A stretch of 64,000 bases of DNA from Treponema sp. (GTDB lineage Bacteria; Spirochaetota; Spirochaetia; Treponematales; Breznakiellaceae). Where the stretch lies: assembly GCA_031268975.1 (NCBI GenBank), contig JAIRWM010000058.1:905-64904 (forward strand), given 5' to 3'. This document shows positions 144 through 60,880 of this stretch, piece by piece. Made by a program: the position numbers and the translations under genes. The notes under the pieces were generated by a model. It saw nothing but the letters and a program-made list of their open reading frames with translations, did not search any database and was not told where the DNA came from. Position 1 is the first letter of the stretch. Every line of letters begins with the position of its first letter.

Positions 144-1760
144 CTATGCCGGGGTAAAACGCAGTTCCGCCAGAGTGGACGCCTCCAGCCTGGCTCTGCA
201 CTTTTCGGCGGCCGCCGTCATGTTACAGCCGCAGTTTGGTCCGGACAAACAATCACCGGTAGCGGTTTTATGGGTTTTTTCAATAACGCCAAGCATCTGG
301 TGATACGGGATGATGGGGTCTATCCCGGCAATGGCCAGATCCGCATACAGGGGTGCGGTAACTGCCGCCCTGACGGTCCGGGTAATGCAGGGGAATTCCA
401 GCCCTCCGGATATGGGATCGCAGGGTATGCCAATATTGGCCTGGAGCGCCATGGACGCAGCGTTTTCAACCACCCTGCCGTCGCCGCCGCAAAGCCAGGC
501 CGCGGCCCCGGAAGCCATTGCGCAGCAGACGCCGCTTTCCCCAACGCAGCCAACTTCTCCGCTTGCGTTTGTGTGGGTAAACGCCAGCGCGCCCAGACCC
601 GCGGCGACTGCCAGGGACTCGACAAGCCGTTCATGGGAATATCCGTATTGTTCCCGTATCGCGTCCAGGGCCGAAAAAAGATACCCGCCACCGGTACCCA
701 TGGGGCCGGGCACTATCTTTACCCCCGGAATCTTCGCGTTGGTGGAAAGAGCGTGGCGGATGATATGACTTGTCAGACTGTCGCTGATGACGCGGCCTTT
801 TTGCGCATAACGGTCCCAGTATCTGCCGTATATCGGAAGAAGGTCTGTGTCCTTTGCATCTTCGTAGCCTATTTTTTCCAGGGAATGAATTTGATTATCC
901 AAAATGGAAGCAATATGTTCAAAAAAGTCCCATATTTCCCGCTCTGTCCATCCGGAGGAATTTTTTTCGTACGCTATGGCCGCATCGGCAAAGCTGATAC
1001 CCCGTTCATCCGCAGTCTGCCGCCATTCCTCCACTGTTGTAAAAAGCTGCGGCTGCTTATCCCTTCTGGTAACAACGGAGAGAAGGGCAGGCAGACGGTA
1101 CACGCGAAGACCCGGCGCACTGGCGGCAAGCGCGTCCAGCTCATTAAAGGGCATGTTTGAGGAAAACTCAAAACCATAACCGGCCTGCCCCCGGGGAGAA
1201 ACAGAAGACGAAAAACGCACAAAAGAAGAATCCCCGGAGGAAGAAAGTGATGCCGCCAGATTCTCCATATCCCGGAGAGAGAGACGGCCTTCTCTGTCTT
1301 CCAGAAACACCAGGTGGGTATCGGCCCGCCATGACAGCGCTATGCCGTTTATGCCGGAAACCAGGATCATGCCACCCCCGACAGATGAGGCGTTCATGGT
1401 ATACACCGTCCCCGCTGAATCTTCAACAACGATACGCTCTTCCGGGGTGCCGGTGTAATCGAACTCATAGGCTATTCCCTGCTGCCGCGCCAGAGCGTGC
1501 GCGTTAAAAAGCCGTTCATCATCCGGCAAAAAACCCTGAATCCCGCCCAAATATCCCCTATCGGACATAAAATTGACCAAAAACGCCAGGGGATGGGAAT
1601 TCCGATCAAACAGGAAACGTACCTTTTTGACATCGCCCCCGGCCAAAGCCCTGGCGGCGTTTCCAATGCGGGCCGGTCCGGCAAATCCACCTGCTGAACC
1701 GGGCTGCATGACGGGGCCGAAAACATCGTTGAAAAAATCGGGATACAGTGACACCGGCAT
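144..1760 (-). CDS. sdaA: iron-sulfur-dependent L-serine dehydratase-like protein, fused beta+alpha chain
   Basis: 538-aa ORF. The N-terminal FGPVMQPGSAGG resembles the IGPSSSHTVGP start of Fe-S serine dehydratases. The C-terminal half carries GEVGCVGESGVCCAMAS and PCDPISGGLEFPC, which are cluster and active-site motifs of the alpha domain. Confidence 0.75.
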   Translation of the reverse strand: MPVSLYPDFFNDVFGPVMQPGSAGGFAGPARIGNAARALAGGDVKKVRFLFDRNSHPLAFLVNFMSDRGYLGGIQGFLPDDERLFNAHALARQQGIAYEFDYTGTPEERIVVEDSAGTVYTMNASSVGGGMILVSGINGIALSWRADTHLVFLEDREGRLSLRDMENLAASLSSSGDSSFVRFSSSVSPRGQAGYGFEFSSNMPFNELDALAASAPGLRVYRLPALLSVVTRRDKQPQLFTTVEEWRQTADERGISFADAAIAYEKNSSGWTEREIWDFFEHIASILDNQIHSLEKIGYEDAKDTDLLPIYGRYWDRYAQKGRVISDSLTSHIIRHALSTNAKIPGVKIVPGPMGTGGGYLFSALDAIREQYGYSHERLVESLAVAAGLGALAFTHTNASGEVGCVGESGVCCAMASGAAAWLCGGDGRVVENAASMALQANIGIPCDPISGGLEFPCITRTVRAAVTAPLYADLAIAGIDPIIPYHQMLGVIEKTHKTATGDCLSGPNCGCNMTAAAEKCRARLEASTLAELRFTPA

Positions 1761-1777
1761 GACTTCTCCTTTTTCCC

Positions 1778-3148
1778 CTACTGGGTCTGGGTGGTGGACG
1801 CGATATTTCCCCTGCGGAAAATGCCGTCGTAAATATCTTCCATAAGCCGCAGTCCGCCATTGTACCCCGCATAGCTCCGGTTAATGATCACGCTGTTATT
1901 CACGGGGAGGCTTACATGAAGGGACAGGTTGCCGTTTTCCGCGGCAAGCTTGTCCTCCCAGCTGCTTCCCAGAATGATCGCCTTGTTGGAGCTTCCAAGC
2001 TTTTTCCGTATGTCTTTCTGGATAATGCCGCCGTCTGTCAAAAATAAAACCGTCTCGTTAAAATCGGAGGTCATATCGGTAAAAACCTTTTCTATGGCGC
2101 CGTATTTCCGGGGCGGAGGATCGTCGGTAATGTATATTCCTTTGGGGACAAAACCCATTTCATTAACCAAATAGCCGCCGAATCCGGCCGCGTAGGAACT
2201 GTCGGCAATGATGTATAACTCAAAGGGAATGTTGTTCCGGAAGTCCGCGAGAAAATCCGCAAGTGAAACAAAGTACGCGTAAAATCTTTTTTCTTCCTTG
2301 CGTATAACAGTCTCTACCCTGTTCTGATCCAATCCGGCAAAGACGCCTATTTCCCGCAGAACCCGGCTTGTCGCCTCGGCGCCGGAGGGCAGGTAGGGGA
2401 TGTGCAGATAGGGCGTTCCGTATTTGCTTTTCAGCAGTTCCACGGTTTCAACGCCAACCCAGGAAGAAAGCGCCAGATTGAACTGCGCATGGGGAATGGC
2501 CTTCCATTCCTCCACTCCCGCAGATTCGTTTCCAAAGAGGATGTTGACCTCAAGACCGACAGCTTCCAGGAGCCGTTTGATTTCTTCAAGGTCACTCCGC
2601 CAGAACGGATTCTGGCAGGGCACTACGGAAAATACGTTGACCAAGCCCTTTTTGGGACGGGCGTCAATGTCGCCGACAAAGCCTTCGATAATGCCCTTGA
2701 TTACCAGTTCATGGCCCAGATAATTGTTTCCCCTGAACCCGGCGGTTTCCACACCCACAATGGGGCGGCCCTGGAGGGCAAAGGTCGAAGCAACCTGCGC
2801 AACATCATCCCCGACAATTCCTGAGGTACAGCCCGAAAGCACTACAAACAAATCCCCCTTAAGAACCTTAAAAGCGCCCTCAATAAAGCGGGACAGTTTT
2901 TCCTCCCCGCCGAACACCACATCCTGCTCATTTGTGTTCGTGCAGCTTACCGTCCCGCCGCCGCCGTATCCTTCGCCCTGGAACCCCGCCCCGTACGAAG
3001 TAAAGGCAAACGTCTTTCCAACGCAGCCGGGACCGGAATGTACTATGGGCAGCGCTCTGGGAATTGCCAGCACCGTCTGCTGAGCCGCCAGGGCGCAGGA
3101 AAAGCGGGGCTGTTCGATGTATGTGGTCTTGTCCCTGTAGTCGATCAT
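1778..3148 (-). CDS. nitrogenase component-1-type oxidoreductase, beta-like (NifK/NifN-like) subunit
   Basis: The start was moved to the internal ATG at 3148, giving a TAACATG junction with the upstream gene. The sequence reads MIDYRDKTTYIEQPRFSCALAA..HSGPGC..LSGCTSGIVGDD, with Cys at NifK P-cluster-type positions. Overall the family resemblance is to Oxidored_nitro proteins. Confidence 0.8.
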   Translation of the reverse strand: MIDYRDKTTYIEQPRFSCALAAQQTVLAIPRALPIVHSGPGCVGKTFAFTSYGAGFQGEGYGGGGTVSCTNTNEQDVVFGGEEKLSRFIEGAFKVLKGDLFVVLSGCTSGIVGDDVAQVASTFALQGRPIVGVETAGFRGNNYLGHELVIKGIIEGFVGDIDARPKKGLVNVFSVVPCQNPFWRSDLEEIKRLLEAVGLEVNILFGNESAGVEEWKAIPHAQFNLALSSWVGVETVELLKSKYGTPYLHIPYLPSGAEATSRVLREIGVFAGLDQNRVETVIRKEEKRFYAYFVSLADFLADFRNNIPFELYIIADSSYAAGFGGYLVNEMGFVPKGIYITDDPPPRKYGAIEKVFTDMTSDFNETVLFLTDGGIIQKDIRKKLGSSNKAIILGSSWEDKLAAENGNLSLHVSLPVNNSVIINRSYAGYNGGLRLMEDIYDGIFRRGNIASTTQTQ

Positions 3149-3149
3149 G

Positions 3150-4652
3150 TTACAGTTCCCCGTCGTCAGTGTCGGCAGCGCTGTCACCACCGGTGTTTTT
3201 TTCGAAGAAAAACGGATCAGCCTGTTCCAGCCACCAGGTCGTATAGGGGCTTTCACAGTGGCGGGAGATATTCTCAAAAAGTTTTTTGGTCTTGAGTGCG
3301 TCAAGAAGCCGCTTCCCCAGCCGCACCAGGCCATCGTAGCCTGCGCTGATATTCACATCTCCGTCGTTCATTGTGGGGATTCCAAGCTTTGCCCCGGTAA
3401 TTGTCATGTTCATGTGCCGTACAATAAGAATATCCGGCCTGGCATCCTTGAGTAGCTTGAAAACCTGATACGGCTGTTTATTACACACCGAATAATTCCC
3501 TATCTCTCCCTTGGAGGCCACAAGGTTCCCCAGGCTGTCCAGGCTTTCCGTTCCGCCGTCGGTGGTCTGGTCGTGGTGCAGGGTTGTGATTCCCACCAGA
3601 TCAAGCCCCAGATCAAGGAGCATGTTGGCGATGCTGTGCGCATAAGAATCTCCCGCGAAAATATAAATTCGCTTTCCCTTTAATTGTTCCCTGACCTGCG
3701 TCAGCTCTTCATTCACCCGTTCATGTTCAGACTGAATAAGATCTTCAACAATCTCTTCCCGGCCGGTCAGCCGGGCGACTTCCCTGAGCCAGTTGTCGGT
3801 CCACTGCACGCCGAAAGGCGGCGGAGACTTGACTTCGGGAACTCCGTACTCCTGTTCAAGCGCCGCCGCGGGATACATTGCCAGCGTTTCACAGATATGG
3901 GTAGTACAGGCCGCCTCGGAAAGCTTTTCCAGGGTCTCCACATCCGCAAGCGGAACAACATAGTTTGCCCTGAGCCCCAGCTTTCCCAAGAGAGGGCCGA
4001 ATGTATCACTCCCCTCAAAATTGAATACATTGACAAGATCCGGTTGTTTTTTTACGGGAGCTTTCACAATCCGGGTAAGAATGCCGTGAAAGGCGGCGTC
4101 AAAACCCGATGACCATATTCTCGACTTGAACCCTTCGCAAAATACCGGGACAACCGGAATGCCCAATTCTTCCTGGAGTTCGTCGGCAACGCTTTCAATG
4201 TCATCTCCGACTATACCCGCGGCACAGGAAGAAAGCACAAATATCGCTGAAGGATCAAACCGTCGCTTTGCCTCATAAATCGTCGCCCGCAGTTTTTCCA
4301 GCCCGCCGTACACGGTGTCCTTTTCCTGAATATTTGTACTAAGCACGTGTACTTCCTGCGGTGGAAGACCCCTTGCCCTGGCAGATACATCCACGGTTAA
4401 ACTGGCCGCGCCGGCCCCGCTGCTGCATCCGATGGGCGCGTGATCTATTACCGCAGCGCCGCGTATAACATAGGTAAGAGTCTGCCCGCAGCCCTGGGAA
4501 CAGTCGCTGCACTGACCAAAGGAACGCTCTGTCAGAGTCAGCTGACGGTTCCGGGAGCGCTCACAGAGATCCTGACCGGTTCCATGGTAGGAAATAATCG
4601 ATTTAAGCCGCCGTTCCCTCACTTCGACTTCGGATAACTCAAGATTAACCAT
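3150..4652 (-). CDS. nitrogenase component-1-type oxidoreductase, alpha-like (NifD/NifE-like) subunit
   Basis: 500-aa ORF with a GGAGGG RBS. Motifs are CSDCSQGCGQ, HAPIGC, LSSCAAGIVGDDIE and THICETLAMY. These match NifD/NifE cluster-ligand contexts by eye. Confidence 0.8.
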   Translation of the reverse strand: MVNLELSEVEVRERRLKSIISYHGTGQDLCERSRNRQLTLTERSFGQCSDCSQGCGQTLTYVIRGAAVIDHAPIGCSSGAGAASLTVDVSARARGLPPQEVHVLSTNIQEKDTVYGGLEKLRATIYEAKRRFDPSAIFVLSSCAAGIVGDDIESVADELQEELGIPVVPVFCEGFKSRIWSSGFDAAFHGILTRIVKAPVKKQPDLVNVFNFEGSDTFGPLLGKLGLRANYVVPLADVETLEKLSEAACTTHICETLAMYPAAALEQEYGVPEVKSPPPFGVQWTDNWLREVARLTGREEIVEDLIQSEHERVNEELTQVREQLKGKRIYIFAGDSYAHSIANMLLDLGLDLVGITTLHHDQTTDGGTESLDSLGNLVASKGEIGNYSVCNKQPYQVFKLLKDARPDILIVRHMNMTITGAKLGIPTMNDGDVNISAGYDGLVRLGKRLLDALKTKKLFENISRHCESPYTTWWLEQADPFFFEKNTGGDSAADTDDGEL

Positions 4653-4672
4653 TCAATCCCTCCAATTGCCAT

Positions 4673-4740
4673 GGCTGTCCAGGAAGTTGGTGCGCAAACT
4701 TGCGTTTACGACCTCCCGGCCAGCCCTTGCTTTCATTCAA
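4673..4740 (-). promoter_or_regulatory. conserved extended hairpin in the 5' leader of the nitrogenase-like operon (copy 1 of 2)
   Basis: The minus-strand RNA is GCAAGGGCUGGCCGGGAGGUCGUAAACGCAAGUUUGCGCACCAACUUCCUGGACAGCC. It forms three stacked stems with a GCAA loop. A second copy at 30387-30454 is about 86% identical and its changes preserve pairing. Confidence 0.55.
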
Positions 4741-4817
4741 CGAACCGTTTCCGCAAATCATATCCCATCATGTTAAACAAAATCATATAATACATATATA
4801 ATTACTAGGATATATGA

Positions 4818-4846
4818 ACAATATCATAGTGTCAAAAAAGGGTCAA
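4818..4846 (-). promoter_or_regulatory. putative sigma70-type promoter (TTGACC-17-TATTGT) for the nitrogenase-like operon
   Basis: The hexamers were read on the minus strand in the AT-rich divergent region. Several alternative hexamer pairs exist nearby. Confidence 0.3.
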
Positions 4847-4920
4847 TATGATTTTCTCTGATCTTGCAATTATTCCCTATTTTTTATATAAAATTACTAT
4901 GAATTTTAAGGATATCGCGT

Positions 4921-6135
4921 ATGGACGAAAGTAATTTTGAAAAACTCGCCTCAATGGTGAAAGGCTTTACCGGCATCGAAAAAGACCGGGTTTCTCTTGG
5001 TTACCGGCCGGGTACCCAGCTTGTACGGGGATATTCGGGTATTGAAAGGGAAACCGGCGCAATCAGCGCGCCCATATACCTGAGCGTGCCGTATGTACAC
5101 CCTTCCTTTGACGAGTCGACCGGCTTCGGCTATGCCCGCTATGGCACTCCGACCAGGCTGGAACTGGAAAACACCATTGCCATGCTGGAACACGGATTAA
5201 AAGCCTGGGCCTTTTCCAGCGGCATGGCGGCAATTTCGATTCTGCTGAAACTTTTTGTCCCCGGGGATCATATCATTGTCTCCAACGATCTGTACGGAGG
5301 CACATACAGGCTCTTTACGACAATATACGGAAGATACGGCCTTGTTTTTACCTATGCGGATACAAGCAATCTTGAAGATGTCAAAAAGGAACTGCGCCGG
5401 GAAACAAAGGCTGTCTTTATTGAAACCCCTTCAAATCCCATGATGAACGTTACCGACATCAAGGCCGTGGCGGAACTGTGCAAAAACAACAACGCCCTGA
5501 CCATTGTGGACAACACCCTCCTGAGCCCGTATTTTCAGCGGCCCATTGATTTCGGCGCGGATATTGTGATACACAGCGGTACAAAATATCTGGGCGGCCA
5601 TAATGACATTATGTCGGGTTTTATCGTTATCGCCGACAAAACGTTGATTGAACCTTTTTTCACTTTTACCATGTCAGAGGGAGGAGTACTTCCCCCGTTT
5701 GACTGCTGGCTTACGCTGCGAAGCCTCAAGACACTCGGCCTGCGCATGGAAAAGCAGCAGGAAAACGCCCTGGGAATGGTTGACTTTCTCAAGAATCACA
5801 AAAAGGTGGAGAAGGTTTTCTATGTCGGGGACAGGGACCATCCCGGCCTTGAAATTTCCCGGCGGCAGACCAGCGGTTCAGGCGGCATGATTTCCTTTTA
5901 CCTGAAAGACAAAGAAGACGCCCGCGGCATTATCAACAAGCTTAAACTCATTCTTTTTGCGGAAAGCCTTGGCGGGACGGAAACCCTCCTCACTTATCCC
6001 GTCGTCCAGACCCACGGAGCAATCCCGGAGGAACTCCGCAGCATCGTCGGGGTAAACGAAAAACTTCTCCGCATATCTGCCGGTGTGGAGGATCCGGCGG
6101 ATCTGATCGAAGACCTGGATCAGGCTTTTACCTGA
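4921..6135 (+). CDS. Cys/Met-metabolism PLP-dependent enzyme (cystathionine gamma-synthase / beta-lyase / methionine gamma-lyase family)
   Basis: 404 aa. It has the SGTKYLGGHNDIMSG Schiff-base lysine motif and family-typical SNPMMNVTDI and ESLGGTETL segments. The RBS is AAGGA. Confidence 0.85.
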   Translation: MDESNFEKLASMVKGFTGIEKDRVSLGYRPGTQLVRGYSGIERETGAISAPIYLSVPYVHPSFDESTGFGYARYGTPTRLELENTIAMLEHGLKAWAFSSGMAAISILLKLFVPGDHIIVSNDLYGGTYRLFTTIYGRYGLVFTYADTSNLEDVKKELRRETKAVFIETPSNPMMNVTDIKAVAELCKNNNALTIVDNTLLSPYFQRPIDFGADIVIHSGTKYLGGHNDIMSGFIVIADKTLIEPFFTFTMSEGGVLPPFDCWLTLRSLKTLGLRMEKQQENALGMVDFLKNHKKVEKVFYVGDRDHPGLEISRRQTSGSGGMISFYLKDKEDARGIINKLKLILFAESLGGTETLLTYPVVQTHGAIPEELRSIVGVNEKLLRISAGVEDPADLIEDLDQAFT

Positions 6136-7396
6136 TTGCCGCAGCAGCTTCCTTTACCGCGTCGGTTACATAGTTGTAGGTCATAAAAACCCGTATACCC
6201 CGTTCAGCAAGCATCTCCCGTGGCGCTTCACCGATCCTCATGACGATTACCCCGGCACAGTCCCCTATGATTCCCGCAATGCCCCCAAAAAGCGCCTCGT
6301 GATCGCGGCATTCTGCGGGGCCAAAACAATATTGCGGGATATCCCGGCGCTCAAGCAGACTTACCCTGCCATCCTGATACTCGTATATATAGAAGCTGTG
6401 TGCATGCCCAAAGTGTTGATCCACCACATAGCCCCTGTTTGAAGCCACGGCAAACCGGAGCGCCTCCCCCTCCCCCGCGCCCGACGACTCCGCGGCAGAA
6501 CAGCCGGCAGCGGCCACGGAGGCTCTCTCTGAGGGGAAACCTTCGTCCAGGGTACGGGAAATGTCCTGATCCAGAGCGCCGACCGCATCGGCCCGGCACT
6601 GCCGGCAGTGATACATTTGAGGCAGAATCGCTTCGCACTTTCTCCGCGTCGCCATGATTTCCGCATTGCTGATCAGGGGAAGGTGCTCAAGCAGACTCCC
6701 CTTAACCGGAATAAGCTGCATAATATTGGAAAGATCCGCTCCCTTTTCCCGCGCCGCTTCCACAATTTTCGGGATGTGTCTGTCATTCAAACCCATAAGC
6801 ATGACAATGTTGATCTTGATAACCATGCCCAAAGCCTGCGCCCGGTCTATCCCTTCAAGCTGGCGCTCAAGCAGTATCTTCGCTCCCTCAAGACCGGTGT
6901 AGCGCCGTCCCTGAAAATGAACATAACGGTAAATCCGCCTCCCGATAGCCGGGTCCACGGCGTTTAGCGTTACCGTAACATGCGAGACCCCCAGGGCGGC
7001 AAGTTCATCCGCATACAGCGGCAGCAGCAGCCCGTTGGTGGAAATACAAAACGTCGCATCCGGTTCAGAGTCCCGAATCAGGGAAATGGTACCCCTGACC
7101 GCCGCAAAATTCGCCAAAGCGTCGCCCGGCCCGGCAATCCCTACTACATCGGGCTTTCCAATCCGTTCTTTTACCAAAAGATACCGGGCAAGAGCTTCTT
7201 CGGGACTGAGAATAGCCGTACTTACGCCGGGACGGCTTTCATTGGGACAGTCAAATTTGCGGACACAATAGTTGCACTGAATATTACAGCCCGGCGCCAC
7301 CGGAAGATGAATTCGGGTAAGTTTTCCTCCGCAGCCGGAAAAACAGGGGTGACGAATTGATTTAAGCAGGTTGACAGCCTTGACAGTATCCGGCAT
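6128..7396 (-). CDS. nifB: NifB-type radical SAM cofactor maturase with a C-terminal NifX/NafY-like domain
   Basis: It carries a CNIQCNYC (CX3CX2C) motif and GIAGPGDAL. The C-terminal ~100 aa (FAVASNRGYVVDQHFGHA...) looks like the dinitrogenase-cofactor-binding domain. The RBS is AGGAG. Its 3' end overlaps the convergent PLP gene by 8 bp. Confidence 0.85.
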   Translation of the reverse strand: MPDTVKAVNLLKSIRHPCFSGCGGKLTRIHLPVAPGCNIQCNYCVRKFDCPNESRPGVSTAILSPEEALARYLLVKERIGKPDVVGIAGPGDALANFAAVRGTISLIRDSEPDATFCISTNGLLLPLYADELAALGVSHVTVTLNAVDPAIGRRIYRYVHFQGRRYTGLEGAKILLERQLEGIDRAQALGMVIKINIVMLMGLNDRHIPKIVEAAREKGADLSNIMQLIPVKGSLLEHLPLISNAEIMATRRKCEAILPQMYHCRQCRADAVGALDQDISRTLDEGFPSERASVAAAGCSAAESSGAGEGEALRFAVASNRGYVVDQHFGHAHSFYIYEYQDGRVSLLERRDIPQYCFGPAECRDHEALFGGIAGIIGDCAGVIVMRIGEAPREMLAERGIRVFMTYNYVTDAVKEAAAAIR

Positions 7397-54834: not shown

Positions 54835-56007
54835 CTAAAAATTAACCCACACAGCTCCCTTTTGGGAGCTTTCCACACATTTGCCGATAAACGTAACGCC
54901 GTTTATACCGTCTTCAATATTGGGAAAATCCAAATCGTCTTCTGCAAGGCTTTCTCCGGCTTTTGTTTTAAGCAGGGCGCCCGCGAAGGTTTTGTAAATA
55001 TTGCCCATCGCCTCAAAATACCCCTCAGGATGCCCGGAAGGGATGCGGGAAAGGGACTGCGCCCGCGGGTAAAAAACGTCGCGGCCCCGGGAGAGGGTTG
55101 TGATGGGCTTACCCAGCAGCGATATCCTGAGGTAGTTCGGATCTTCCACGCGCCATTCAATGCCGCCTTTTGTTCCAAAAACGCGGAACTTAAGACCGTT
55201 ATCGTTGCCCATCGCTATTTGGCTTGACCAGTACACGCCCTTTGCGCCGTTTGTATACTCAAGCATAATTGTAGCATTATCGTCCAGAACGCGGCCGGGG
55301 CCTATTTTATCAAGCCGGGCCAATAGGGACTTGATTTTAAGCCCCGTTACATACGAGACCATGTTTTCGATATGGGATCCTATATCGCCGACGCAGTTCG
55401 ACTTGCCGGCGCGCTGCGGATCGGTACGCCATTCGGCCTGTTTGCTGCCTTCTTTTTCCTGGGGGGTGATAAGCCAGTCCTGGGGATATTCGCCGTTAAC
55501 GTAAAGAATATCGCCGATTTCTCCCCTGCGTATCATTTCCCTGGCGTGCTTGACGGCGGGGAAACCCGTGTACGTATACGTAACACCGAACAGGAGCCCA
55601 TTTTTTTTGGCAAGTTCCGCCAGCTCTTTCGCTTCCTGCACTTCAAAGCACAGGGGTTTGTCGCAGACAACATGAATCCCCTGGTTAAGAAACGCTTTTG
55701 CCGCCGGATAATGGCTTGCGTTGGGCGTTACAATGACGACAAAATCAATTTTGTCGGATCGTCTGCCTTCCGCGGCGGCCATATCGTCGAATGTTTTGTA
55801 CAGCCGGTCTTCGGGTATCCCCAGACTTTTTCCTGTCGCCAGCGTGTTGTCCCAGGAACGGGAAAAACATCCCGCCGCGATAACAGACATGCCGTCGAGG
55901 GCTATGGATTTACGATGAACGTCCCCGATAAAGGCGCCCGGGCCGCCGCCGACCATGCCATAACGGAGCTTTCCGGTGATGCCGGAATCAGAACTTCCTT
56001 CTATCAT
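54835..56007 (-). CDS. Gfo/Idh/MocA-family NAD(P)-dependent oxidoreductase
   Basis: It has the Rossmann motif YGMVGGGPGAFIG and then VVCDKP. The RBS is GGAGGA. Confidence 0.85.
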   Translation of the reverse strand: MIEGSSDSGITGKLRYGMVGGGPGAFIGDVHRKSIALDGMSVIAAGCFSRSWDNTLATGKSLGIPEDRLYKTFDDMAAAEGRRSDKIDFVVIVTPNASHYPAAKAFLNQGIHVVCDKPLCFEVQEAKELAELAKKNGLLFGVTYTYTGFPAVKHAREMIRRGEIGDILYVNGEYPQDWLITPQEKEGSKQAEWRTDPQRAGKSNCVGDIGSHIENMVSYVTGLKIKSLLARLDKIGPGRVLDDNATIMLEYTNGAKGVYWSSQIAMGNDNGLKFRVFGTKGGIEWRVEDPNYLRISLLGKPITTLSRGRDVFYPRAQSLSRIPSGHPEGYFEAMGNIYKTFAGALLKTKAGESLAEDDLDFPNIEDGINGVTFIGKCVESSQKGAVWVNF

Positions 56008-56145
56008 TTCTTGTCCTCCAAAATTTTACGCTCGATAAGTTTTTTTCTTCCGGGTTTTTGGCCTGACTTACAGTATTATACCCTGTTTTGCCGTTTTGGG
56101 CAAGAAGATCTTGTTATTTTGAGCGGGTTCTTTTTAAACTGGGTG

Positions 56146-57198
56146 ATGGATCCGTATTTATCCTGTATGCTGTGTCCCCGGCGCTGTGGAGTAAACCGCC
56201 GGGGGGATGCGCCTTCCGGAGGGGGGTTGGTTTCCGCTCGGGGCCCGGCGGACGATGTCGGGGGAATATGCGGGGAAACGGCGGCGTTGCATCTCGCCTG
56301 CGCCTCCATACACCGGGGCGAAGAGCCTCCGATAACGGGGATAGGCGGCTCAGGCGCCATTTTTGTAAGCGGCTGCAATCTGGGTTGTGTATTTTGCCAG
56401 AATCACCAGATATCCCGCCGTTTCCCGGACAGGCGGATGGCGTACGGCGCCGGCGTTACCGCGCGGGAATTTGCCCGGATTTGCCGGGCCCTCAAGGAAC
56501 GGGGCGCGGAAAACATCAACATCGTTACCGGCAGCCACGCCGTCCCCGTCCTGGCGGAATACCTGAAAACGGCGTTCACCGGGCCCGGGGATGCCCTGCC
56601 GGTATTGTGGAATTCTTCCGCCTATGAACTTCCCCAAACCCTGGAGCTTCTGTCCGGCATTGTGGATGCATTCCTCCCTGACCTGAAAACCCTGGACAGC
56701 GGCCTTTCTTCCCGGTTTTTCCGGGCCCCGGATTACCCACAGACCGCAAAAACGGCAATCCTGAAAATGCTGGACATGATGAAAAACCGCGCAACGGCTT
56801 CCGTAGCGGCTTCCCCGGCGGGGACCGGCGGCGGCCTACCGGCGGTCATTGTCCGTCATCTGGTTCTGCCGGGTTTTCTTGAGTCAACCCGGAATGTTCT
56901 GTACTGGTTCGCGGAAAACTGCGCGGGAATACGGGGCGTGGAACTTTCCCTTATGTTCCAGTATACTCCTGTACCGGCAGGAGCCGCCGCGCATTTGCCG
57001 CCGGGCCCGCCCGGTACGGTAAGCGGAGATGAGTACGACACCGTACTTGGCTGGCTTTCGGAATACGGGATTGAAGACGGCTACTGTCAGGAACCTGTTC
57101 CGGACAGCGCCGGCTGGCTCCCGGATTTTGAAAAGGCCAATCCGTTTCCTTCGGAGCTTTCTCTCCCGGTATGGCACTGGCGGGAGGGTTTTCTGTGA
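56146..57198 (+). CDS. PflX/YjjW-like radical SAM protein
   Basis: It has CNLGCVFC (CX3CX2C) and an N-terminal CMLCPRRCGVNR. The start was set at the ATG at 56146, because the 258-aa upstream extension of the ORF is antisense to the oxidoreductase gene. Confidence 0.8.
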   Translation: MDPYLSCMLCPRRCGVNRRGDAPSGGGLVSARGPADDVGGICGETAALHLACASIHRGEEPPITGIGGSGAIFVSGCNLGCVFCQNHQISRRFPDRRMAYGAGVTAREFARICRALKERGAENINIVTGSHAVPVLAEYLKTAFTGPGDALPVLWNSSAYELPQTLELLSGIVDAFLPDLKTLDSGLSSRFFRAPDYPQTAKTAILKMLDMMKNRATASVAASPAGTGGGLPAVIVRHLVLPGFLESTRNVLYWFAENCAGIRGVELSLMFQYTPVPAGAAAHLPPGPPGTVSGDEYDTVLGWLSEYGIEDGYCQEPVPDSAGWLPDFEKANPFPSELSLPVWHWREGFL

Positions 57199-57223
57199 AA
57201 TACCCCCGTGGTATAGTTATGCC

Positions 57224-58261
57224 ATGTATAAAAGGGAAATTCTTGAACCCGCCCTGTCCCCGGTAAAAGACGGGACATTCGTCGAGGGAACATGGAACAG
57301 GGCATTCAGGGATGTCGATCTTCTCGGCACACACAAGCCGTACAGCATACCCCTGCCGCGCTGGGCCCGCGAGGGCAGGCTCAAGGAATGGGAATCGTTT
57401 GTTGTTCAAAATAACCGCTATCATCTTGACGCGTTCCTTGCCAACCTGAAATACTTCCGCATCGCCCAACTGGTGTTGTACGACAAGGAAAGCGGGGAAC
57501 GGTTCCGGTTCCGCAAAATACTCCCCTTAAGCGGCTGGAGGCTGCCCCGGAACCTTTACAACGACTCCATCGACTCCCGGTCTCAGCGCTTTTTTTTCAG
57601 GATACACAACTGGCTTGACGCCGAAACCATCAGAATTGACATCGATGTAGAAGCCCGGAGAAAAAGGCCGGCCTTTACCTGCCAGCTTACCTTTAACGCC
57701 GCTTCGGTTCCCCAGGTAACCGCCTGGCGCCGGAACGACCTGCCGTTTTATACCTACAAGATCGTTTCATCTGTCAGCGGGGACATGGTTTGGAACGGAA
57801 AACATATCGTATTCCGGCCGGAAGAAACCTCGGGCTTTTTCCGGGACAACAAAGGTTTTTGCCGTTACCTGTCGTCGTTCCTGTGGTGTACCGCCGCGGG
57901 AATTGACGAAAACAACCGCCACTACGGATTCAGCCTTGTCGGACAAAGCGCCGGGAATTCCTCGAAAAACAACGAAAACGCGTTCTGGATCGGCGGAAAA
58001 ACAACGCCGCTGCCCCCGGTACGCATCACCATGCCCAACGGCATCGGTGAAAGCTGGGTAATACAGGATCTTGAAGGCATGGTCGATCTGAGCTTTAGCC
58101 CCCGGGTTAAAGTCCGCAGCGCGTTTAATTTTCTTGTATTCAGCGCGGATTATCAAACGCCCCTTGGACATTTTTCCGGATTCCTGTTAAATTCAGAGGG
58201 AGAGCGCATCCAGATACGCGGCCTTTGGGGGCTTGGGGAAAAGCTCTCGTTGCGGGTATAG
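57224..58261 (+). CDS. DUF2804-family protein
   Basis: 345 aa. The pattern RLKEWESFVVQNNRYHLDAFLANLKY matches the KEWDYY... core that I recall for DUF2804. Confidence 0.55.
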   Translation: MYKREILEPALSPVKDGTFVEGTWNRAFRDVDLLGTHKPYSIPLPRWAREGRLKEWESFVVQNNRYHLDAFLANLKYFRIAQLVLYDKESGERFRFRKILPLSGWRLPRNLYNDSIDSRSQRFFFRIHNWLDAETIRIDIDVEARRKRPAFTCQLTFNAASVPQVTAWRRNDLPFYTYKIVSSVSGDMVWNGKHIVFRPEETSGFFRDNKGFCRYLSSFLWCTAAGIDENNRHYGFSLVGQSAGNSSKNNENAFWIGGKTTPLPPVRITMPNGIGESWVIQDLEGMVDLSFSPRVKVRSAFNFLVFSADYQTPLGHFSGFLLNSEGERIQIRGLWGLGEKLSLRV

Positions 58262-58263
58262 AC

Positions 58264-60441
58264 ATGGCGAAAAAAACCAAGGCGATATACGCCCCCGGTG
58301 AACTTTCAAAAGTCAGGGGAAAGCTGGGTAATCTGAACGACTCGGAAGCCAAACGCATGGCCCGGATTCTCGGCGGCGAAGTCGGTTATGAGCGGTCGGA
58401 AGTCCAGGAAGATGCCCGGCACAGGAAACAAGTACGCCACGAAACAGTAGAAGTCGCCGTCGGAGACAGAAAGCCTTTCCGCAGGGTAGAAACGGCGGGA
58501 GCGGACAGCGCGGCTCCGGGCAGCGCACAGCGAAAAATTGCCCGCAGAAGGGACAACGATCCTGTAGACGATCCGTCGGTCCCCGTCAAGGCCAGTTACT
58601 GGGAACGGGTCCGAATGGACAAGTACATGGGCCAGCCTGAGTTCGAAATAAAGTCATCCGGACAGGTACTGTTTTCCATGCTGTCCATCCTGAACGATCC
58701 TCCGGATATGGTAAGCCCGGTTTTTGTAAACCGCAGAATGAACAACTATTACAAACGTATTGAACTTTTGGTAACCTCAATGCGGTCCCTGCTGCCCCGC
58801 AACAACCTTAAACGGAACGAAAAACTGAAAAAAGCGTCTCCGTTCGCGTTTGCCGTTCTTGACACAATCCGGTACTGGAACATAGACCAGATTTCCAGCA
58901 GCCTGTCGAAGATACAGGCTCATCCCCGGAACGCAAAAGTTCAGGATTTCCAGGATATCCTCAGGGACATTTACAGGCCGCTTTTTATCCTTGAAAAACT
59001 CGACGTGGAAACCCACATTAAAGGATCGTTCAAACTTCTTTATAAAATTCTTTACCTGGAAAATCCGGGCGAAGCGAAAACAAAGTATCAGGAACTTATA
59101 CGAAACGCCCTTGTATCCTATGGACTGATACACCGGGATATCCGCTTTCAGCTTTACCCCATGCTCCTTAAACTGCTTTCAAACTGCTGGATACCGTATG
59201 AATCCTTTTTCGTGGAACGGAAAAACCGCATCAGGGCGCTCCTCCAGGTAACCGAAAAAAACAGAATCAGCCCCAACATGGGGAACGCCGCGGAAGCAGA
59301 AGAAGCCGCGCAGGAAGCCGAAGAGAACGGGGAATCCGGAGAACAGGGAGAGTCCGGAGAGCCTGGAGAGCCCGGCAAGAATGAAGACGGCGTTGAAACT
59401 GTGGAAGTGTTTGACGAAAGCGACATGGACGAACCGCTTACCGAAGAAGAGCGGATCAAACGGCAGTACGGCGAGACGGAGAAAAAAGCCGTAGACCGGG
59501 GACTGTCCACCCTGGAAGCTCTGTTCCCAAAAGCCGGCTGGGAACGCATCCGCGTCTATCCCGATTTTTATCCCTATTTTTCCGATGTTTTCCACTTCAA
59601 AAAAGGCTTTGAGCTTGTTGCCCCTACAGATCCGCTCCAGCAAATTGTGATACTGATGCGCATCCTTGAAGAACTGTTCTTTGGGCTTCGTTATGTGATT
59701 TTCGGCGTAATCATGGGTCCGGACGGCAGCCCGGAACGCATTGACGATTCAATCGGCAGAATTATAAATGAGTGGCAGAAAAATACCGAAACAAGCCTTG
59801 ACAAGGAATACCTTCCCCGGCTGGATGAATATTGCCGCCTTCTGGAAAATACAGCCGAATCCAGAACCAGCAATTACGCCAAACGGCTGCTCAATGAACT
59901 GCATTGGATAAAGCGTCTGTATTTTCTTCCGTATTACAAGTTTGAATCGATTATGCCGCCGCCGTTCCAGAAGAACGCCATTACCGCGGTGTATCCGGAA
60001 ATACGGCTGCTCCGCAAATACCTTACCGCCGTTGCCACCGGAATTGATCAGGGGATCAAACGCGGCGGCATGGAAAAACACGCACCCTGTGACGGCATAG
60101 ACAACCCCTGGGATTCCTATATTTTTCAGGTGCCCAATCCCCTTTCAATCCGCCTTGATGCCCTGCTTTCTCCCAAAAGACGGAACAACGCGTCGCTGAT
60201 TTTTTTCACACTCGCGGTTACGGTACTACTGGATCACCTTGTCAACAACGAAGACAGCTGGGCCTACAGCCATAAGGCGGAGTTCCTGTTTCGCAGCGAA
60301 AACGGCGAAGGAGTGCGGCCCTTGTTCGGGGTGGAAACAAAGATCGACACCGAAGCCATTTTCAGGCAAGTGTTAAAAAAGCGGACGGCGGCCGCGGCCC
60401 TGGCTGCCGCGGAAGCGAAAGCCTCGGAAATCAACGTTTAA
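58264..60441 (+). CDS. 725-aa hypothetical protein with a central acidic low-complexity linker
   Basis: The ATG lies 2 nt after the DUF2804 stop. I recognise no motif in it. The ORF is long and has the same codon style as its neighbours. Confidence 0.7.
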   Translation: MAKKTKAIYAPGELSKVRGKLGNLNDSEAKRMARILGGEVGYERSEVQEDARHRKQVRHETVEVAVGDRKPFRRVETAGADSAAPGSAQRKIARRRDNDPVDDPSVPVKASYWERVRMDKYMGQPEFEIKSSGQVLFSMLSILNDPPDMVSPVFVNRRMNNYYKRIELLVTSMRSLLPRNNLKRNEKLKKASPFAFAVLDTIRYWNIDQISSSLSKIQAHPRNAKVQDFQDILRDIYRPLFILEKLDVETHIKGSFKLLYKILYLENPGEAKTKYQELIRNALVSYGLIHRDIRFQLYPMLLKLLSNCWIPYESFFVERKNRIRALLQVTEKNRISPNMGNAAEAEEAAQEAEENGESGEQGESGEPGEPGKNEDGVETVEVFDESDMDEPLTEEERIKRQYGETEKKAVDRGLSTLEALFPKAGWERIRVYPDFYPYFSDVFHFKKGFELVAPTDPLQQIVILMRILEELFFGLRYVIFGVIMGPDGSPERIDDSIGRIINEWQKNTETSLDKEYLPRLDEYCRLLENTAESRTSNYAKRLLNELHWIKRLYFLPYYKFESIMPPPFQKNAITAVYPEIRLLRKYLTAVATGIDQGIKRGGMEKHAPCDGIDNPWDSYIFQVPNPLSIRLDALLSPKRRNNASLIFFTLAVTVLLDHLVNNEDSWAYSHKAEFLFRSENGEGVRPLFGVETKIDTEAIFRQVLKKRTAAAALAAAEAKASEINV

Positions 60442-60463
60442 CCGGGGCGCGTTATCAGACCGG

Positions 60464-60857
60464 TTAAAATCGCCGCGCTATACTAAAACTTACATCCGCG
60501 GTTTCCAAAACATTTAATTTTCCGCTGTTTTTGATGTAAAACAAAAAATTACTTTCAAGGATAATATTCATAGACCATAATTTCCCGTGATTTCCCAATG
60601 CCAGCTTTGGCCGCATTTGCGGTGAAAAACAAATACTCCCGTCATCATAACTTATTCCAAGACCCGGAGTAATAACGCCCATTATAGTATTCCAGATTCC
60701 CCTCAATATAAAATTTATCCAGGCAATATTTTAATCCCAGGTCAAATGTCATTGCCATGTTTTCGTTCATCACAATAACCAGCGGCAGGGTAATACCATA
60801 AGCCGCGGAATTCTTTTTCACTTTTCCAGTGTACGTTTTATTTGCGGCGTTGTTCAA
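60464..60857 (-). pseudogene. frameshifted, N-terminally truncated outer-membrane beta-barrel gene remnant
   Basis: Two overlapping ORFs lie in different frames (60645-60857 and 60464-60706). Both have alternating beta-strand-like sequence and the second ends ...DVSFSIARRF with a terminal Phe. There is no signal peptide, and a stop codon lies directly upstream. The region is AT-rich. Confidence 0.5.
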
Positions 60858-60880
60858 TAAGTTCTACCGCGGACTGTCTG

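Follow-up and report, generated by a model that had tools for sequence, protein, structure and literature searches.

Do a radical S-adenosylmethionine (SAM) enzyme, a DUF2804 protein and a large protein of no described family, encoded by three closely spaced genes, belong to a single system? The question is posed by a 64,000-nucleotide stretch of Treponema sp. DNA (assembly GCA_031268975.1, contig JAIRWM010000058.1, positions 905 to 64,904; the window from here on), in which three consecutive plus-strand open reading frames (ORFs) encode a radical SAM protein of PflX type, a member of the DUF2804 family and a protein of 725 amino acids (aa), referred to below as the large protein (P0003; Table 1). 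An original prediction made from the sequence alone had taken a radical SAM enzyme coupled to two proteins of unknown function as the signature of one modification or biosynthetic system. As we show here, the three genes do not travel together. Only the DUF2804 gene and the large gene form a deeply conserved pair, and the large protein is homologous to the N-terminal part of spirochaetal GGDEF proteins, so that the trio narrows to a testable two-gene module conserved across Treponematales.

Conservation of the DUF2804 and large genes as a pair

Gene order was compared in four sets: the genomes of 41 relatives, 80 named loci with their flanks, a tree of 79 large proteins and 301 high-quality Spirochaetota genomes. 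Named relatives of the locus, which place the window among termite-gut treponemes of the family Breznakiellaceae, are found in termite-gut Treponema sp. metagenome-assembled genomes (MAGs), Breznakiella homolactica, Leadbettera azotonutricia and Treponema primitia. Each of the three ORFs is a real gene with homologues in the hundreds. About 22 of the 41 relatives' genomes, drawn from three families (f5 being one), have the two genes of the pair side by side. In 62 of the 80 named loci the DUF2804 gene immediately precedes the large gene; 36 of the 80 have the pair without the radical SAM gene, 18 have the full trio (all from one family), and eight (L016-L023) have the radical SAM gene directly beside the large gene and no DUF2804. 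Within the Breznakiellaceae the DUF2804 gene is directly upstream in 61 of 75 informative loci, with three changes on the tree, and the same holds in 28 of 28 high-quality genomes with a large gene that were sampled from the Breznakiellaceae and Treponemataceae. This order is maintained even though the Treponemataceae pair proteins are only 23-29% identical to those of the window. The gap between the two genes ranges from 2 to 90 nt across families; in the window it is 2 nt (TAG-AC-ATG, 58259-58266), and the pair is therefore probably translationally coupled.

The radical SAM gene adjoins the pair in 26 of 69 informative Breznakiellaceae loci, with at least ten changes on the tree, and in only seven of the 41 relatives' genomes; in the Treponemataceae and f5 genomes compared it is never next to the pair. 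The search for a conserved three-gene radical SAM system thus found a trio that is restricted to one family and absent from Treponemataceae and f5. Adjacency is patchy in one family and lacking in the others. A failure of the three genes to co-occur across genomes had been named beforehand as speaking against a system of three coupled genes, and the claim was not borne out. The radical SAM gene, which is single-copy per genome, lies on a different contig from the pair in six genomes (G001, which is of the same genus, G007, G012, G017, G019 and G020), and in G001 this is so despite 8 kb of upstream sequence on the pair's contig. In complete genomes the two are separated by 0.2-1.8 Mb, as in G268 (pair, 94-97 kb; radical SAM gene, 717 kb) and G258 (0.24 Mb and 2.07 Mb, respectively). 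Of the 301 high-quality genomes, 183 have the radical SAM family and 46 the large protein. Even one and the same upstream context, c15/ABC-transporter ATPase gene/c17, occurs both in L077, where the radical SAM gene follows, and in L055, L057, L058 and L079, where it does not.

The two proteins of the pair and their relatives

The large protein belongs to a spirochaete-restricted family, for which 848 homologues and 330 representative clusters were found. AlphaFold2 run on a diverse alignment of 110 sequences yielded a confident model, with a predicted local distance difference test score (pLDDT) of 87.5 and 532 residues at 90 or above; an earlier model from a shallow alignment of 13 sequences (pLDDT 45.9) was discarded. 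The predicted structure is in good agreement with the layout first read from the sequence, that is, a basic N-terminal part and two helical halves joined by an acidic linker (Table 1). The N-terminal motif is near-invariant at G12, L14, G22, E28, L36, G37, G38, G41 and E43 across the 110 sequences, and no further copy of it was found in this genome. The alignment holds few conserved polar residues that would hint at catalysis. Domains A and B show no detectable homology (hhalign probability 0.6%), and an internal duplication was rejected. Apparent domain-B paralogues elsewhere in the genome proved to be ordinary GGDEF proteins, which matched GGDEF columns carried into the sub-alignment.

No Pfam family matches the large protein, and NCBIfam has no model above cut-off for it or for either of its neighbours. 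Foldseek searches of PDB and BFVD with the predicted structure returned no match under E 0.06, with query-normalised template modelling scores (TM-scores) of at most 0.14; a profile search of PDB sequences with the large protein gave nothing, and single-sequence PDB searches with all three proteins gave nothing usable. The 725-aa family is new to Pfam and NCBIfam, and its predicted fold is without a match in PDB or BFVD. With a predicted structure that is confident and yet unmatched, the large protein would be well worth studying structurally and for c-di-GMP binding.

The informative relatives of the large protein are longer. P0156 and P0157 align with it over its whole length (E ~1e-128), and both carry a degenerate GGDEF domain at the C-terminus. 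The family profile (A2), which was seeded with P0003 and covers the N-terminal motif, domain A and domain B, matches the GGDEF-bearing proteins P0156 (1e-128), L105 (1.4e-157), L106 (1.8e-24), L108 (2.1e-13) and L107 (1.7e-12), where the values for L106, L107 and L108 were computed at Z=1e6. The latter three come from other Spirochaetota families: their N-terminal 550-670 residues match the profile, a canonical GGDEF domain follows at the C-terminus, and an RxxD I-site is recognisable in L107 and L108. The GGDEF-fused relatives align across both domains A and B. P0003 has no match to GGDEF (PF00990) and terminates where the GGDEF domain of its relatives starts, and therefore it cannot make c-di-GMP. 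Since its longer homologues end in GGDEF, we read the window protein as a stand-alone, spirochaete-specific version of an N-terminal module of diguanylate cyclases. This gives it an evolutionary tie to c-di-GMP signalling enzymes, and sets aside the concern that it might be a known housekeeping factor unrelated to its neighbours. The homology of the N-terminal motif and domains A and B with the spirochaetal cyclases (canonical in L106, L107 and L108, degenerate in P0156, P0157 and L105) is confined to the same phylum. The two forms differ in that the window protein lacks GGDEF and is paired with DUF2804, while the GGDEF-fused forms have no DUF2804 neighbour. Some class-level relatives with a degenerate GGDEF domain are encoded in an operon in which the large gene follows those for an HDOD/HD protein and a metallo-beta-lactamase-fold protein (L105:5370-12782; L094, L095); others lie behind parB and the gene preceding it, probably parA. 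In L094 and L095, thyX lies downstream of the HDOD operon in convergent orientation.

The DUF2804 protein is a full-length member of its family, of which P. aeruginosa PA3342 is another example: it matches PF10974 at 133.2 bits (cut-off 26.9) over model positions 37-335 of 339. All 28 aligned orthologues match PF10974 as well, and a Pfam scan of these 28 at E values up to 10 detected no second family. No PDB relative was found, profile search included. Our search of the literature on DUF2804, PF10974, PflX and COG1313 found nothing on function, and the single paper that mentions a family member does so incidentally (PMC8151288). The large protein is the first conserved partner for a family that is essentially without literature. 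The paired proteins form a subfamily distinct from a second DUF2804 paralogue in this genome, to which the window protein is 23% identical. This paralogue is encoded at C161:412-1832 (minus strand), upstream of a gene for a QueD-like 6-carboxytetrahydropterin synthase; two DUF2804 genes are present in most relatives too.

Taken together, these observations lead us to favour, somewhat above even chances, a functional unit that consists of DUF2804 and a cytoplasmic protein of ~700 aa, a two-protein module of diguanylate cyclase ancestry from which the radical SAM enzyme would be independent. In this scheme the large protein would be the stand-alone descendant of the N-motif/domain A/linker/domain B module that fronts GGDEF in other Spirochaetota; Treponematales would have lost the GGDEF output, and the module would then have become fixed beside DUF2804. 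Gene order, domain architecture, homology to GGDEF proteins and the lack of a known fold are observed directly; from these we infer that the two proteins physically interact and act jointly as a signalling or adaptor complex. In it DUF2804 might bind a ligand or carry out catalysis, and the helical protein, derived from a c-di-GMP enzyme, might act as the sensor or scaffold. The radical SAM gene may be co-transcribed with the pair and yet not encode a required partner; its product would be a widespread enzyme with its own role, encoded upstream of the pair through an ancestral order dnaA-dnaN-recF-dciA-rSAM, DUF2804-large and metH.

The PflX-type radical SAM protein and rival explanations

The radical SAM protein scores above the cut-off of PF04055 (29.5 bits), and both cysteine motifs that had been read from its sequence are present at the residues listed in Table 1. 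An N-terminal CxxCxxxC followed by CxxxCxxC is the architecture of PflX-type proteins (COG1313/K04070), with which it also shares a length range of ~300-350 aa, and close homologues carry the K04070-type Joint Genome Institute (JGI) name 'putative pyruvate formate lyase activating enzyme'. The N-terminal motif presumably binds an auxiliary cluster or zinc. The window copy differs from PflX-type proteins in that its first Cys motif is followed by an insert rich in Gly and Ala. It is also more diverged than the products of the two neighbouring genes, with 61-70% identity to its nearest relatives compared with 80-82% for theirs. The gene call in the collection used (P0273) is 253 aa, 72% of the query, and its start lies after the CxxxCxxC motif; since homologues, 300-370 aa long, extend over the whole 350-aa reading, the deposited annotation is probably truncated at the N-terminus (56146-56436).

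The protein has its radical SAM fold in common with PflA-type glycyl-radical activases and matches them weakly near the cluster loop, but it scores far under the cut-offs of the activase models TIGR02493 (PFLA; 13.8 vs 231.75 bits) and TIGR02494 (PFLE_PFLC; 15.2 vs 174.35 bits), and these weak NCBIfam matches centre on the CNLGCVFC stretch. The AmmeMemoRadiSam model (TIGR04337) likewise reaches only 22.5 bits (cut-off 220) and covers just the cluster loop, residues 74-92. The original prediction had noted that no glycyl-radical enzyme is nearby. This is correct for the 64-kb window and does not extend to the genome, which has two such enzymes elsewhere (816 and 801 aa; contigs C121:15734-21087 and C182:2222-5526), each with its own activase-like gene that encodes a GPGxR...C.L.C.WC.NPE motif. 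On C182 the activase gene overlaps the stop codon of the enzyme gene, and on C121 it is ~2 kb away on the opposite strand.

Away from the pair, the radical SAM gene has other recurrent neighbours. It lies by dciA in G012 and by dnaA in G007, and upstream of malQ (GH77 4-alpha-glucanotransferase) in G331, G017, G020 and the Treponemataceae (L096:7371-13134; L114, L115, L100, L097, L101), where a ~1200-aa GH13-like gene also follows the radical SAM/malQ genes in G331 (L096) and in the Treponemataceae loci L097, L100 and L101. Directly before the radical SAM gene of Treponemataceae is an acidic ORF of ~135 aa without a Pfam match (L097:7119-7526(-), L099:7272-7688(-), L101:7472-7960(-)). The copies of two genera are 27% identical (E 8e-14), and its product is a candidate for a real partner or substrate of the PflX-type enzyme. 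As a dedicated partner in the present genome it was rejected, no such ORF being detectable here. In five loci, namely L046:5984-6949 of Breznakiella homolactica and four MAGs (L031, L043, L045, L048), a 3-hydroxyisobutyrate-dehydrogenase-like gene (NAD_binding_2, NAD_binding_11) occupies the place of the radical SAM gene.

Upstream of the trio, dnaA-dnaN-recF-dciA is found in eight or nine loci, and metH lies downstream in convergent orientation in 27 loci, which suggests the ancestral order dnaA-dnaN-recF-dciA-rSAM-DUF2804-large-metH. In termite-gut Treponema MAGs (L026, L030, L032 and L039-L041, at about 1000-7000) the trio directly follows dnaA-dnaN-recF-dciA and so stands beside the replication origin cluster; in the window's own 93%-complete assembly no dnaA, dnaN or recF was found with the queries used. 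Origin proximity was dropped as a functional clue, given the inconsistent positions across complete genomes. The linkage of the radical SAM gene in the window is best explained by descent, and the gene is probably a syntenic neighbour outside the conserved module. A caution for the PflX family as a whole is that the neighbours seen in one genome say little about the substrate.

How well does a two-protein module stand up against other readings of the locus? Several observations weigh against it. The Breznakiellaceae clade L016-L023 (G022 in the genome comparison) has lost DUF2804 and kept the radical SAM gene beside the large gene, and one genus with complete genomes of 2.8 Mb keeps DUF2804 and has no large protein; because of these cases the pair cannot be considered obligatory. 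A signalling role is suggested solely by domain fusions in distant relatives. Furthermore, the trio is probably ancestral to the Breznakiellaceae and was repeatedly broken, since radical SAM adjacency occurs in every major subclade; it persists behind at least four distinct sets of upstream genes, which could mean that the linkage is under some selection. These last points speak for a single three-gene system, as do the tight spacing on one strand, the persistence of the radical SAM gene beside the large gene in the DUF2804-less clade and the fact that families f4 and f6 have neither the radical SAM gene nor the large protein. In such a system, an operon serving this purpose in termite-gut treponemes, the radical SAM enzyme would modify one of the other two proteins post-translationally or would produce or change a small molecule bound by them. 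We nevertheless judge such a system unlikely: adjacency was lost at least ten times with the gene retained elsewhere as a single copy, it is never seen in the Treponemataceae or in f5, both of which conserve the pair, four times as many genomes carry the radical SAM family as carry the large protein, and the gene keeps recurrent company of other kinds. A composite of the two ideas, in which an undescribed spirochaete-specific signalling complex, made of two folds without a solved relative and derived from a cyclase by loss of GGDEF, has one partner modified by a co-transcribed PflX-type enzyme in termite-gut treponemes, seems to us a long shot; if true, the large orphan PflX family would gain its first substrate.

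The pair could also be metabolic, with DUF2804 an enzyme or carrier for a hydrophobic substrate, the large protein its scaffold or regulator, and no link to c-di-GMP left. Invariant polar residues of DUF2804 (N250, N252, D282, E284 and D288) could form an active site, and the 3-hydroxyisobutyrate-dehydrogenase-like gene overlaps the DUF2804 start codon in the five loci described above, that of Breznakiella homolactica included. In P. aeruginosa, GliR induces the DUF2804 gene PA3342 15-fold along with genes of glycerolipid metabolism (PMC8151288). This reading remains doubtful in our view, as the only informative relatives of the large protein are GGDEF proteins in HDOD-containing operons, its alignment offers little that suggests catalysis, and the pair has no metabolic gene as a consistent neighbour. 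Finally, every adjacency might be neutral synteny among three functionally unrelated genes, and one 14-member clade does show all four states (both neighbours, DUF2804 only, radical SAM only, neither). Retention of the pair over three families at ~25% identity and in every one of the 28 sampled genomes is far beyond neutral expectation, which renders this explanation highly improbable.

Layout of the locus

The coordinates bear out the arrangement reported initially (Table 1): three ORFs with a 25-nt gap between the radical SAM and DUF2804 genes and the 2-nt gap given above, divergent from a sugar operon. The minus-strand gene at 54835-56007 runs away from the radical SAM gene, with 138 bp between them. 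Judged by the spacing, co-transcription of the three genes is plausible, as had been proposed. The labels assigned at the outset, PflX-type radical SAM, DUF2804 and a large protein of unknown function, hold as well, the first of them on motif architecture and the names of close homologues.

Table 1. Position of the three genes, the upstream intergenic region and the sequence features of the encoded proteins (window coordinates)
Feature	Position	Strand	Remarks
Intergenic region	56008..56145	.	Separates the minus-strand sugar operon headed by Gfo/Idh/MocA from the radical SAM gene; presumably holds a promoter; one sigma-70-like match, minus strand
PflX-type radical SAM protein, 350 aa	56146..57198	+	PF04055, 33.1 bits; JGI-named homologues
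N-terminal Cys motif CMLCPRRC (C7, C10, C14; residues 7-14)	56164..56187	+	Translation
Radical SAM [4Fe-4S] motif CNLGCVFC (C77-x3-C81-x2-C84; residues 77-84)	56374..56397	+	Translation; Pfam
DUF2804 protein, 345 aa	57224..58261	+	PF10974; upstream member of the conserved pair
Large protein, 725 aa	58264..60441	+	No Pfam/NCBIfam match; downstream member of the conserved pair
Conserved N-terminal motif, residues 1-47 (PGEL..R..LG....EA.R.A..LGGEVG.E)	58264..58404	+	Family hallmark; pLDDT 70-84
Basic disordered segment, residues 48-99	58405..58560	+	pLDDT <50 at 48-86; length varies in alignment A1
All-alpha domain A, residues ~100-340	58561..59283	+	pLDDT 95-98
Acidic Glu/Gly/Pro-rich disordered linker, residues ~341-392	59284..59439	+	pLDDT <50 at 354-388; length and sequence vary among relatives
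Domain B, residues ~393-725	59440..60438	+	Alpha-helical with small beta elements; pLDDT 88-98; GGDEF domain follows in relatives

PADLOC returned no match for any of the three proteins, and a known anti-phage defence system was rejected on these grounds. Downstream, a simple scan of 60442-60880 detected no convincing terminator for the large gene. This region is an AT-rich gap of 440 bp that separates the large gene from purD, and its sole ORF encodes 80 aa on the minus strand (60464-60706).

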